A DNA stretch of 21,839 bases from Bdellovibrionota bacterium (lineage in GTDB: Bacteria; Bdellovibrionota_C; UBA2361; JBIKWN01). The notes below the pieces were generated by a model, which saw only the letters and a list, made by a program, of their open reading frames with translations, did no database searches and was not told the origin of the DNA. The DNA is taken from NCBI GenBank assembly GCA_044356295.1, contig JBIKWN010000040.1, forward strand, positions 1 through 21,839. The letters run 5' to 3'. Positions within the stretch are counted from its first letter, which is position 1, and each line of letters starts with the position of its first letter. Of the stretch, positions 4,963-8,189 are shown piece after piece. A program made the translations under genes and the position numbers.

Positions 4963-6267
4963 ATGATGCAAAAAACAGCTTTTGCCGCCGCAGCTATTTT
5001 TAGGTCCCACCTCACCTTGATCCTTATATGCGCTCTTTGCGTATCCCTGCCTGGTCTATATGGTGAAATATTTACCTATCCAGAGCTAAACGAAAAATTA
5101 CTAATTCTAATAACATCGTTTGTTCAAGAACTATTAAGTACTGCTTTCTTTATTTTTATCTTCTATCGAATACGGAAACAGGATCCATCACATCCACCAT
5201 TTTCCTTACATGCAATACTCCTCACTACTGCTTTCTATCAATTCGCATGGCTCATTAATCATCTTCCACTACTTTTAACGTTCTTACTAAAAACCGACCA
5301 AGACGTTTATGAGCGGCTGTCTTCAATGGCAGGAATGTCTTCATTATTTATCTCTTTTTCAATACTGTTCTGGGCATCGAGATACTATTTTATTTTTTGG
5401 CCTCTCCTTATTGAAGGAAAATCTTTAAAAGACAGCTTCAAAGCAACTTCACTTCAAAGTGAGCATTTAAATCGCCGTGCAGCACTACAAGTTGTTGCAA
5501 CTGCGCTCGTTATGTCTGCAATCGTAACGCAGTGTGCAGTAACTTTTTATCCACAACCTGAACATCCAATGGTGAAGATATTTGGAGATTTAGCAGATGG
5601 AATTTATTGGATCGTCATGACATGCCTTTGCATTGGATTTACAAGAGTTTTTGAAAAAAATATTAGTGATAGTTTTTCAATAACGAAAAATAACCAGCTT
5701 CTTGCAAACATATTTGGAGCAAAAGGACTTGGTAAAGCAATCGTATGTTTACTTTTATTATCTGGTTGGCAGCTGTATCGATTAACGGCTGCAGAACCAA
5801 CGGCCACATTTAAAACCTCGATTAGTTCGTTTAATGAAACAACTGGTTTTCTAACGGTTCATCTAGATGCAGTCGACGAGAAAAATCATTTTTCAAATTT
5901 TCAACCTCTGTTTTTGAGGATCGCCGGTGAAGACGGATTTATTTTGAGTGATAGCAGTGAACTTATCTCACCTTCACGGTATCCAGAGGAAATCCTCAAA
6001 GCCCCAGTCTCATTACAAATGACTATACGTTTTCGAATCAGTAATCGCAGAGAAGATTTTGTTCAATTAAAAGACGTCTACCTTTGGTACGGTACCCACC
6101 GCCTGTCTCCTCTTGACCTTAGTAACGTTCCAATTGAAACAACTCCTGAAGTGAATCAAGACGCAGGGCAAAAAAAAGCGCCCTTTGAGGGTTCATTGTC
6201 TTCAAAAACAATGAGCCTCGCGGGCGCCCCAAGTAATATCTTAGATATTACCAAGCTTGTGCTGTAG
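4963..6267 (+). CDS. Hypothetical membrane protein (about 6-7 TM segments plus a soluble C-terminal domain)
   Basis: 434-aa ORF with repeated hydrophobic segments in the first ~275 aa; no recognised motif. Confidence 0.7.
   Translation: MMQKTAFAAAAIFRSHLTLILICALCVSLPGLYGEIFTYPELNEKLLILITSFVQELLSTAFFIFIFYRIRKQDPSHPPFSLHAILLTTAFYQFAWLINHLPLLLTFLLKTDQDVYERLSSMAGMSSLFISFSILFWASRYYFIFWPLLIEGKSLKDSFKATSLQSEHLNRRAALQVVATALVMSAIVTQCAVTFYPQPEHPMVKIFGDLADGIYWIVMTCLCIGFTRVFEKNISDSFSITKNNQLLANIFGAKGLGKAIVCLLLLSGWQLYRLTAAEPTATFKTSISSFNETTGFLTVHLDAVDEKNHFSNFQPLFLRIAGEDGFILSDSSELISPSRYPEEILKAPVSLQMTIRFRISNRREDFVQLKDVYLWYGTHRLSPLDLSNVPIETTPEVNQDAGQKKAPFEGSLSSKTMSLAGAPSNILDITKLVL
6170..6227 (-). terminator. 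Intrinsic terminator of the histone gene
   Basis: Minus strand reads GCGCCC-gc-GAGG-c-TCATTGT-ttttgaag-ACAATGA-ac-CCTC-aaa-GGGCGC followed by T8, about 20 nt after the stop at 6248. Confidence 0.85.
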
Positions 6268-6502
6268 TTGGTGCTTCTACGTCACGTGCCATAACTGTCT
6301 TACGACCAGCATCTTTTGCCTTAGCAATTGCTTTATTGATTTCAACTTCAATAAGTTTTGTAAGTGCTTCTGGAACATCACCTGCAGTGTTCATTCCTGA
6401 GATTTCTTTGATGAACTTCTTAACTTTAGAAGTTACAACAAGAACTGTCCCTTCGTTTGCTGATGTTTCAGTTGTAGTGGTTGTTGTTTCTGTATTTTCC
6501 AT
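6248..6502 (-). CDS. Bacterial histone (Bd0055-like single histone fold) with N- and C-terminal extensions
   Basis: Core VLVVTSKVKKFIKE..GMNT....ALTKLIE...KA...AK..GRKTVMARD closely matches my recollection of Bdellovibrio Bd0055 and contains the histone-fold RKTV..(R)D motif. AGGAG RBS (6509-6513) lies 6 nt before the ATG; dedicated terminator downstream. Confidence 0.92.
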   Translation of the reverse strand: MENTETTTTTTETSANEGTVLVVTSKVKKFIKEISGMNTAGDVPEALTKLIEVEINKAIAKAKDAGRKTVMARDVEAPTTAQAW

Positions 6503-6701
6503 GGTTTTCTCCTAATTAAAATTTTCTTAAAAAAGTCTTATGCTTAAAACCCTCTTAATTTCGTTCTCACGAGCAAGCAGACGGTATCTCATGAAACCAT
6601 TCTACACAAACAATTCAGAGGGGTTTTTTTCAAATAGTAAAATTTAATATATAAATCATTGATTTTACTAAATAATTTTTGTTACCCTGTACCTCAAATT
6701 T

Positions 6702-7583: not shown

Positions 7584-8189
7584 ATGTCAGATAAAAATGA
7601 TCAAACTAGATTATCTTCCTGGAAGGAAGAATTTGCAGCTGCTGAAGCTGCACTGAACACTAGGGACAGTGATGAAAGCAGTGATCTGCTGGATGATGAA
7701 CTGCAGGATGAGGAACTTTCAGCTCTCGAAGCTGAAGTTGAGGAAGGACTTCGGGAATTCCTTAATTCAGATGATTCCGGTGCAACTGCTGAAGGTGAAT
7801 CGCCTGTGCAAGTGGAACTCCCTCCTTATGATCTTGGTAAGCCGTTTAGCGATAAACGGAAAAGAACGATCGAGGGAAGCCAGGATGCAAGGAAGGGTCG
7901 AGCTAAAACTCGAAAAACCCTTGCATCCGCAGCAACATCCGCTCTTCTAACTGCGCATGAAGATGCCAAGAAGATAGATGGAATTGGATTGTTGATGGCA
8001 GCAACCGTTGTAAGTCTTAGGGCTTTTCAACAAAGCAATCCAAATACCGATCCGTCGCACAAGAAAACAGCAAAAAAGATCCTTAGGATCCAAGCTGCCT
8101 TTCAACAGCGACCAGGCTTTCTAAAGAAGCCACCAAAGGATAATCGTCGAGTAACAACGCCTCTCGAGGCTGAGCCCGTCGAAGCCTGA
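7584..8189 (+). CDS. Hypothetical protein, acidic N-terminal half and basic C-terminal half
   Basis: 201-aa ORF with a GGAG RBS upstream (gtggagtgaagttATG); no family recognised. Confidence 0.65.
   Translation: MSDKNDQTRLSSWKEEFAAAEAALNTRDSDESSDLLDDELQDEELSALEAEVEEGLREFLNSDDSGATAEGESPVQVELPPYDLGKPFSDKRKRTIEGSQDARKGRAKTRKTLASAATSALLTAHEDAKKIDGIGLLMAATVVSLRAFQQSNPNTDPSHKKTAKKILRIQAAFQQRPGFLKKPPKDNRRVTTPLEAEPVEA

Follow-up and report, generated by a model that had tools for sequence, protein, structure and literature searches.

The histone gene and its core

The window, that is, the whole stretch of DNA analysed here (21,839 nucleotides), comes from a lake-water Bdellovibrionota MAG that is 93.6% complete. 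On the minus strand, positions 6248..6502 of the ORF list (84 codons plus a stop at 6248-6250) encode an 84-aa histone, the sole histone match found in this genome. The protein is exactly the one quoted in an earlier note on this DNA, and the open reading frame, the counts of tail residues, the C-terminal EAPTTAQAW and the 6-nt spacing of an AGGAG motif given there were all confirmed on the sequence. Among contigs from four lake-water metagenome runs, those of X1 (the probable source) and X3 are identical to the locus over the part that they cover, which in X3 includes the tail, and those of X2 and X4 carry the histone gene of a sibling species.

The Shine-Dalgarno (SD) motif AGGAG lies at 6509..6513 (minus strand; ctcct on the plus strand), separated by a spacer at 6503-6508 from the ATG at 6500-6502. 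At the other end of the gene, an intrinsic terminator at 6167..6230 (minus strand) consists of a long G+C-clamped hairpin followed by U8 and lies within the 3′-terminal part of a convergent gene at 4963-6267 (plus strand). The RNA fold of 6160-6250 (minus strand) has an energy of −32.2 kcal/mol (z −3.9), and 0 of 200 shuffled sequences were as stable. A simple terminator scan of the minus strand missed this hairpin, which exceeds the loop and stem limits of the scan, and a promoter scan upstream of the gene on the same strand returned no sigma-70-like site. The strong SD, the strong terminator and the single copy may be indirect signs, read from sequence, of an abundant nucleoid protein.

Residues 20-76 (6275..6445, minus strand) form the histone-fold core, with α1, L1, α2, an L2 carrying the RKT motif (R67 K68 T69), the pair R73-D74 and a one-turn α3. 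The earlier note had taken this core for a bacterial histone akin to Bd0055 (HBb) of Bdellovibrio bacteriovorus and had proposed a search for histone-fold matches; both searches returned clear matches to HBb. With phmmer against the PDB, residues 19-75 aligned to 8cmp_A (E 7.8e-12) and 8fvx_A (E 1.1e-11), and the top five Foldseek matches were all HBb structures (probability 1.00, target TM 0.73-0.81); identity across the fold in the Foldseek alignments was 54-57%. The match to Pfam PF00808 reached 17.6 bits, below the cut-off of 21.4, and most of the homologues collected also have no precomputed Pfam match.

HBb belongs to the known “bacterial dimer” class of α3-truncated histones (Hocher 2023; Hu 2024; Schwab 2024), described as defined by an α3 truncated to 3-4 residues and a shortened α2 (PMC11390915). 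Our AF2 model has helices at residues 15-35 and 43-64 (α2) and a 3-residue helix at 72-74 (the truncated α3), the same short α2 and one-turn α3 as in HBb (PDB 8cmp, 8fvx, 9ezz, 9f0e). Both proteins also have the RKT motif, the RD pair of the RKTxxxD motif (RD clamp) and the α1 T-S-K / K / K DNA contacts, with the conserved α1 lysines. In alignment A1 the invariant columns are S25, K26, K28, N38, T39, K63, G66, R67, K68, T69, M71 and D74, and K32 is at least 90% conserved. Hu et al. named ten HBb residues as the main DNA contacts (PMC11317129), and nine of the ten are retained when mapped through the phmmer alignment: T8, S9, K10, K12, K16, N22, K52, T53 and R57 of HBb correspond to T24, S25, K26, K28, K32, N38, K68, T69 and R73. 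The lone change is S24, which is A40 here.

Like HBb, the protein is predicted to form a homodimer and is encoded in single copy alongside HU/IHF genes. The dimer prediction (ipSAE 0.53 vs 0.00 for the best control) cleared a threshold also attained by 20 of 30 pairs and 1 of 23 single chains of known structure, a pass that may stem from resemblance to solved HBb dimers. At least 86% of contacts agreed between runs, the partner pLDDT was at least 67 and the predicted interface spans residues 19-77. We are close to certain that the protein is a tailed histone of the HBb/Bd0055 type.

The N-terminal tail and its translation

Residues 1-19 (6446..6502, minus strand) form an N-terminal tail that lacks Lys and Arg and contains 9 Thr, 1 Ser and 4 Glu. 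It is predicted to be disordered (AF2 pLDDT below 50 at residues 4-13; means of 44 and 53 in blocks of ten residues). Tail plus V20 carries a net charge of −4 and the core +3, which leaves the whole protein at −1; the pI is 5.4 for the whole protein vs 9.5 for the core by itself. In HBb 2-4 residues precede the core; here 19 acidic Thr/Glu-rich residues and an 8-residue C-terminal extension are added. In the alignments residue 19 falls at residue 5 of 8cmp_A and, in 8fvx_A (a 64-aa chain), at residue 3, so that Bd0055 is indeed nearly tail-less, as the earlier note had stated. A motif, M-E-N-T, is conserved at the N-terminus of the tail.

The C-terminal extension APTTAQAW (residues 77-84; 6251..6274, minus strand) contains Thr, ends in Trp and is also predicted to be disordered (pLDDT below 50 at residues 79-84). 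The ending ...Q(A/T)W is common to P0001, P0002, P0003 and L004, and the Bacteriovoracia doublet histones end similarly in ...(E/T)APTT(L)(A/S/T). Another lineage (L013) has a Thr-rich C-tail that ends in Phe. The shared ...APTT might point to an origin of the clade of the query histone in the C-terminal half of these doublets, although the two do not group in the core tree, which is poorly resolved.

Microsatellite slippage was rejected as the origin of the tail. The six-Thr run uses the codons ACA, ACA, ACC, ACT, ACA and ACT, a mixture that had been read as an argument against slippage, and Tandem Repeats Finder reported no repeat with a score of at least 30 in 6200-6560. The composition of the tail was compared with that of 1252 crude ORFs from this genome, which lie in open frames of 150 aa or more and run for 120 aa or more from a start with SD support. 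None of these has at least 9 Thr within its first 19 residues; one has at least 10 Ser plus Thr there, and 38 have a net charge of −4 or lower. Nine other Thr-rich windows of 19 aa occur in the set, eight of them Thr/Pro-rich linkers and one a Thr/Gly repeat, all of a composition that differs from that of the tail.

The tail is almost certainly translated, as the earlier note had thought probable. Besides the placement of AGGAG and the presence of tails throughout most of the clade, no in-frame ATG, GTG or TTG lies between Met1 and Met37, which makes Met1 the only start before the core (the codons of V20, L21, V22 and V23 are GTT, CTT, GTT and GTA). A start inside the coding region would therefore delete α1. 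Relatives L002-L027 have GGAG-type sites at equal spacing 5′ of the tail ATG, and an SD-linked ATG with an open frame was present in all 24 singlets checked; tail length varies among relatives and the frame from this ATG stays open. An internal start or dual isoforms were rejected in a check that covered four distinct close relatives, with a start-capable GTG at V20 only in L002/L004 (one genome). The conserved E-G just 5′ of the core yields an SD-like GAGG. Over-extended calls do exist in the database (in P0063, P0090, P0095 and P0108 a spurious hydrophobic or basic stretch precedes an internal M-A/S-E/N-V start), but given the lack of an in-frame start that would spare α1, the AGGAG positioned for Met1 and the 24 open frames, it is hardly credible that translation begins at the core and that the upstream ATG is a gene-calling artefact.

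Tails in relatives and the balance of charge

The core tree (57 columns, 90 rows) is poorly resolved, with 51 of 87 inner branches open. The clade of the query histone has an SH-aLRT of 98, and 11 of its 13 rows carry N-extensions of 16-22 residues; the remaining two, with extensions of 5 and 8, sit on long branches and are probably misplaced. We also collected 48 singlet loci with checked start sites across the order and class. N-extensions are net acidic at 47 of the 48; they reach at least 16 residues at 18 loci and fall below 10 at 20. Tail presence and composition are conserved among close relatives, and the tail is as real, acidic and Thr-rich as first described; the checks that the earlier note had set against its own reading of a tailed histone did not overturn it. 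It is less singular than was then implied, with similar acidic S/T/E/N-rich N-extensions of 10-27 residues at 28 of the 48 loci.

Over most of the tail, composition is conserved and sequence is not. The 28 extensions of at least 10 residues hold only 12 Lys plus Arg among 431 pooled residues (2.8%), compared with a share of 10.9% over the 19 residues that follow Met in the 1252 genome ORFs, and this holds although the tails are A-rich and the Lys codons are AAA and AAG. Judged from such comparisons of sequence, tail composition is selected at the protein level.

Tail charge and core charge are coupled across the 48 loci. The Spearman correlation is −0.51 with relatives that are not independent of each other; independent contrasts gave r −0.34 (p 0.017), with 25 contrasts of opposite sign, 13 of the same sign and 9 of zero. 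With relatedness allowed for on the poorly resolved 57-column tree, we regard this correlation as modest. Tail length alone did not track core charge in independent contrasts (r 0.12, p 0.40). Mean total charge was +1.0 both in proteins with tails of at least 16 residues (n = 18) and in those with fewer than 10 (n = 20). The tail-less HBb-type proteins have total charges of +1 to +2, compared with −1 and a pI of 5.4 for the query histone.

The arrangement is that of a disordered acidic tail on a basic DNA-binding domain, as in acidic autoinhibitory tails. Our preferred reading, to which we give about an even chance (roughly 0.5), is that the tail electrostatically tunes DNA binding. The histone would form a histone-fold homodimer that contacts the DNA backbone with the first turn of α1 and the RKT motif of L2. 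The tail of about 19 Thr, Glu, Asn and Ser residues is joined directly to the DNA-contacting start of α1, which would give each dimer two built-in polyanions. These could vie with DNA for the basic ridge, or push away the backbone and adjacent dimers; affinity would be lowered and exchange would be faster, and over-compaction, filament formation or aggregation would be prevented. We infer that the tail contacts the DNA-binding face and alters DNA binding, probably by weakening or tuning the grip and not in the way of the basic, modifiable tails of eukaryotic histones; the coupling of tail charge to core charge supports this indirectly. No residue of the tail (1-18) was among the confident contacts of the predicted dimer, and neither the AF2 monomer nor the dimer gave the tail a confident position, which is evidence neither way on docking.

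Alternative roles of the tail

There are three other possibilities. The tail may be a by-product of an A-rich, unstructured 5′ coding stretch that boosts translation of an abundant protein, or a generic solubility “bristle”, in either case with no specific effect on DNA binding and with amino acids constrained only to be harmless (polar, not basic). We consider this somewhat unlikely. Codons 2-20 of the histone are 51% A, at the 99.5th percentile of the 1252 ORFs. Across 29 loci, A occupies 0.43 of four-fold third positions in tails vs 0.22 in cores, and the genome at large shows no such head bias (gene heads 0.372 vs 0.366). Because the four-fold sites of tails are enriched in A and those of gene heads in general are not, mRNA-level pressure also acts on the tail stretch. 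Tail sequence and length also evolve fast, even inside families (20 residues in L016 vs 10 in L025 of family f6; 6, 8 and 11 in family f2). However, a by-product would not be expected to nearly exclude Lys, the residue with the most A-rich codons, to keep a negative net charge at all but one of the 48 loci and to track the charge of the core, or to stay within 16-22 residues in all 11 rows of the clade that are well placed. Also, HBb-type genes that lack a tail are evidently well expressed without a stretch of this kind, HBb being abundant in B. bacteriovorus (PMC10627809; PMC11390915).

The tail may also be a platform for modification, in which Thr and Ser are phosphorylated by Hanks-type kinases, or glycosylated, and thereby switch the histone on or off DNA. 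This idea, raised at first as a possible bacterial chromatin-modification system, found no specific support, and we think it unlikely. Ten Ser/Thr per 19 residues in an exposed disordered segment would be suitable targets, and the genome has 5 Pkinase (Hanks-type) matches over the cut-off and 7 matches to FHA, a phospho-Thr-binding domain; genomes of this kind commonly encode both, which makes their presence uninformative. A SpoIIE/PP2C phosphatase lies two genes from the histone gene, but this synteny is shared only with the nearest relative (G002) and is absent in G001, of the same genus, and in G010. No kinase, acetyltransferase, methyltransferase or glycosyltransferase adjoins the histone gene, and by eye no tail Ser/Thr in A1 is positionally conserved except the residue just before V20. 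More specifically, we doubt that Hanks kinases and PP2C phosphatases phosphorylate and dephosphorylate the tail of the sole histone and so regulate the coating of the chromosome. If they did, bacterial histone-tail signalling would work by adding negative charge and not by neutralising positive charge.

Finally, the acidic tail, perhaps with the C-terminal Trp, could be a handle that binds a basic partner (a Lys-rich nucleoid protein, a polymerase or a chaperone, for instance), in the manner of the SSB tip. The conserved termini, M-E-N-T at one end and ...Q(A/T)W (P0001, P0002, P0003, L004) at the other, fit this reading, as does the Thr-rich, Phe-ending C-tail of the L013 lineage. No partner was found, conservation over most of the tail is confined to composition and no neighbour gene is conserved (as a functional clue, the neighbourhood offered synteny with G002 alone), which makes recruitment quite improbable.

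Electrostatic tuning, the reading that we prefer, has parallels in other systems. The acidic C-terminal tail of HMGB1 is disordered, folds back on the basic DNA-binding surface and lowers affinity, and the acidic C-terminal tip of SSB doubles as a partner-binding handle. These are analogies only, with unrelated folds and with runs of Asp/Glu vs the Thr/Glu of the query tail. Closer to hand, archaeal coiled-coil histones carry strongly acidic, disordered tails at the N-terminus, the C-terminus or both, which Schwab et al. (2024) propose to be intramolecular inhibitors that occlude the α1 DNA-binding face (PMC11390915), the mechanism that we also prefer for the query tail. These tails may serve as a precedent for autoinhibition in the query histone. 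They differ from it in that they are not homologous to its tail and belong to a DNA-bridging archaeal class, described as weakly expressed in one archaeon (PMC11390915), whereas here the acidic tail sits on the only histone match of a bacterial genome.

Experimental characterisation of bacterial histones began only in 2023. Prokaryotic histones are described as generally without N-terminal tails (PMC12701072), and most bacterial singlets as without long disordered ones (PMC10627809). The bacterial face-to-face histones, for example Leptospira HLp (Schwab 2024; PMC12701072), are α3-truncated and often have short, unconserved N-tails; these are mostly positive and the proteins tetrameric (PMC11390915), in contrast to the acidic tail and dimer class here. 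A eukaryote- or Asgard-like histone tail with a modification system would be basic, rich in Lys/Arg and linked to dedicated writer or eraser enzymes. The query tail, which lacks Lys and Arg throughout residues 1-19 and has a net charge of −4, is opposite in charge to the eukaryotic tails, as the earlier note had claimed, and to the Asgard tails as well, and no such enzymes are linked to the histone. In the literature that we searched, no account of acidic tails on histones of the HBb type came up, and supplementary figures such as the HMM logos and tail figures of PMC11390915 could show such tails.

The new element is a translated acidic disordered tail on an HBb-type histone, the histone class itself being already known: an incremental, concrete extension of a young field and not a new kind of system. 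Tails described so far are basic (bacterial face-to-face, Asgard) or sit on archaeal coiled-coil histones; here, the sole detectable histone of a whole Bdellovibrio-related lineage bears an acidic tail that cancels the positive charge of its core. If the tail tunes DNA binding, the N-extensions, from 5 to 27 residues long on a single conserved fold, are a natural series that could reveal how charge balance sets histone-DNA affinity. Tail variants could also bear on the debated filament-vs-bending behaviour of HBb, whose N-termini are reported to exchange between dimers (PMC10627809).

A single HBb-type histone with an acidic tail

The 84-residue translation of the minus-strand ORF at 6248..6502 is identical to the protein quoted in the earlier note, and the AGGAG motif placed there 6 nt upstream of the ATG lies at 6509-6513 (-). 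The tail (residues 1-19) contains nine Thr, one Ser, four Glu and no Lys or Arg; none of 1252 ORFs of the genome has at least nine Thr in its first 19 residues. The Thr run is encoded by ACA ACA ACC ACT ACA ACT, codons as mixed as the note had stated in arguing against microsatellite slippage, and Tandem Repeats Finder detected no repeat there. RNA folding 3' of the stop codon revealed a long hairpin with a G+C clamp and, after it, U8 (-32.2 kcal/mol, z -3.9), a fold matched by 0 of 200 shuffles. With AGGAG upstream and the hairpin and U8 downstream, the histone gene looks like a self-contained unit. A promoter scan detected no sigma-70-like promoter on the histone strand.

The assembly (2.96 Mb, 128 contigs, 93.6% complete; the window is contig 26) contains three HU/IHF-family genes, and this gene is its sole match in a protein search with the histone and in a Pfam profile search with PF00808, where it scores 17.6 bits and thus falls under the cut-off of 21.4. 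In the proposed comparisons with Bd0055 and HMf, phmmer against PDB sequences matched residues 19-75 to HBb (Bd0055; 8cmp, 8fvx) at an E-value of about 1e-11, with HTkC, HLp and HMfA/B as weaker matches, and five HBb entries rank first in Foldseek against the PDB. An AF2 model built from a 24-row alignment (mean pLDDT 72.7) places the end of alpha1 at residue 35, alpha2 at 43-64 and alpha3 as one turn at 72-74, with pLDDT below 50 at residues 4-13 and 79-84. Nine of the ten main DNA-contacting residues given for HBb by Hu et al. (PMC11317129) are retained in the phmmer alignment, the difference being S24, which is Ala40 in the query. The query alignment shows no variation in the RKT motif or the R73-D74 pair. 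A homodimer is predicted via residues 19-77 with an ipSAE of 0.53 (best control 0.00), a mark attained by 20 of 30 solved pairs and 1 of 23 solved single chains; contact agreement between runs was at least 86% and partner pLDDT at least 67. Because HBb dimers have already been solved, this prediction is a likeness to HBb and not independent proof.

Acidic extensions among relatives

The tailed query is not a singleton. Besides many singlets whose N-extensions are polar and acidic, homology searches returned 64-aa HBb-type proteins without a tail, doublets of 131-132 aa (labelled Bacteriovoracia) and ZZ-finger fusions. A histone match (E <= 1e-5) was obtained in 53 of the 110 genomes of the window's GTDB phylum that are at least 80% complete. 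Three families of the same order (f8, f3 and f7) gave matches in 0/34, 0/3 and 0/4 genomes, most of them more than 90% complete, which suggests loss of the histone, or its divergence past the reach of the query, in parts of the order.

We compared 48 singlet genes with checked start sites, counting all residues ahead of the L-V-V motif as N-extension. Extensions of at least 16 residues are present at all three loci of the same genus, at 14 of 28 in other genomes of the order and at 1 of 17 in other orders of the class. In the core-only tree the query clade (starred, SH-aLRT 98) has extensions of 16-22 residues in 11 of its 13 rows; the other two are long branches that are probably misplaced. 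The extension is net negative at 47 of the 48 loci. Close relatives keep both the tail and its composition. The 28 extensions of at least 10 residues, pooled (431 residues), are 19.5% T, 16.7% E, 12.8% S and 10.2% N, and K+R make up 2.8% (12 residues) versus 10.9% over the 19 residues after Met in 1252 crude ORFs of the query genome. The query genus is the Thr-richest among the loci compared.

The query's extension has a charge of -4 and its 57-residue core one of +3, giving -1 for the whole protein (pI 5.4 versus 9.5 for the core alone); HBb-type proteins that lack a tail total +1 to +2. At the 48 loci, the more positive the core, the lower the tail charge tends to be (Spearman -0.51, nominal p 2e-4), and mean total charge is +1.0 in both long-tailed (n=18) and short (n=20) forms. 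Since kin are not independent, we computed independent contrasts of tail versus core charge on the core tree, which gave r -0.34 (p 0.017; signs opposed in 25 contrasts and agreed in 13, and 9 were zero), a value attained in 38 of 2000 tip shuffles. This coupling is only suggestive because the tree has few columns and poor resolution. Tail length alone shows no relation to core charge after contrasts (r 0.12).

Possible roles of the tail

We favour electrostatic tuning or autoinhibition of DNA binding, because the acidic tail is placed at the DNA-contacting start of alpha1. At the first alpha1 turn of HBb, T8, S9 and K10 are described as contacting the DNA backbone (PMC11317129), and a filament crystal form is described in which N-termini swap between dimers (PMC10627809). 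The tail attaches at this first turn, where a flexible acidic chain of about 19 residues would be well positioned to compete with DNA for binding to the basic ridge, to repel the DNA backbone and to disturb dimer-dimer packing. Neither the AF2 monomer nor the predicted dimer gives the tail a confident position. Autoinhibition by acidic tails has likewise been proposed by Schwab et al. (PMC11390915) for archaeal coiled-coil histones, whose tails are negative, as in the query; their passages on tails give bacterial face-to-face histones positive tails, unlike the query, and make no mention of tails in the "bacterial dimer" class. Long disordered N-tails are absent from most bacterial singlets according to the corresponding passage of Hocher 2023 (PMC10627809). 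Full-text searches of the main articles turned up no account of an acidic tail on a histone of the HBb type.

The tail could also result from mRNA-level pressure or be a generic bristle. Its codons are 0.51 A (99.5th percentile) and four-fold synonymous sites are 0.43 A in tails versus 0.22 in cores, while gene heads genome-wide have no general A enrichment (0.372 vs 0.366); this tail-specific synonymous excess therefore indicates some RNA-level pressure. Lys codons are nearly absent, however, and the charge is consistently negative, which argues for selection on the tail protein as well as the RNA. The one hint that the tail may be a partner-binding handle is that the termini are conserved, C-terminal Trp included. 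The best-conserved tail parts are its start, M-E/D/S/T-N/T-T, and its end, x-E-G/S-A/T-V. A phospho- or glyco-switch, which the earlier note extended to a possible chromatin-modification system, is attractive but of low probability: five Hanks kinase hits over cut-off, seven FHA hits and a nearby PP2C gene are present, but none is linked to the histone. That translation omits residues 1-19 is effectively excluded, since no in-frame ATG, GTG or TTG other than that of Met1 precedes the core and the next, Met37, lies within the fold, so that any alternative start deletes alpha1; the tail had been called probably translated on account of its AGGAG, and in all 24 related singlet loci an ATG after a GGAG-type site likewise precedes the N-extension, the frame staying open throughout while tail length varies.

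Other histone forms and the genome setting

Several genomes of the same order or class (loci L028, L029, L031, L032, L049) have another histone gene besides, whose product joins the same fold via a long S/T/P-rich linker to a Cys/His-rich zinc finger (YWKKCSxCKK...CWDAHLGYxNHR), matching the ZZ histones described by Schwab et al. 2024. A search of the window's own genome with the query histone found no zinc-finger-fused form. Some singlets (L013, L033, L034) have Thr-rich low-complexity C-terminal extensions, of about 20 residues in L033 and ending ...TTTTTGTF in L013, and the C-terminal extension of the query (6251-6274) has the conserved ...Q(A/T)W terminus of its genus. A Thr-rich linker with a terminal aromatic in two lineages may be a short docking motif. 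The doublets (P0014-P0055) end ...(E/T)APTT(L)(A/S/T), similar to ...EAPTTAQAW of the query; in the core tree, itself poorly resolved, the query clade and their C-terminal halves do not group together.

The histone is flanked by genes for a SpoIIE/PP2C phosphatase, an M50B-like peptidase and an unannotated 434-aa membrane protein (4963-6267, +), which is convergent and overlaps the last 20 nt of the histone gene. In the synteny comparison this arrangement is common only to the nearest relative genome, whose membrane-protein counterpart is 47% identical. The histone terminator hairpin lies inside the 3' coding region of the membrane-protein gene. About 1 kb from the histone, a 201-aa ORF (7584-8189, +) with a strongly acidic N-terminal and a Lys/Arg-rich C-terminal half has no Pfam match and no counterpart beside the histone in that relative.

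Among named relatives, the closest are MAGs that bear the labels "Bdellovibrionota bacterium" and "Deltaproteobacteria bacterium UBA2409", and the sequencing runs containing the locus are lake-water metagenomes. Two of these runs (X2, X4) contain a sibling species' histone gene, in contigs that part from the window at 6358 and 6454; translated by hand, its tail matches the type of another genome of the genus (...IEVETTS...). Thus, two tailed-histone species of the query genus appear to co-occur in lake-water runs.
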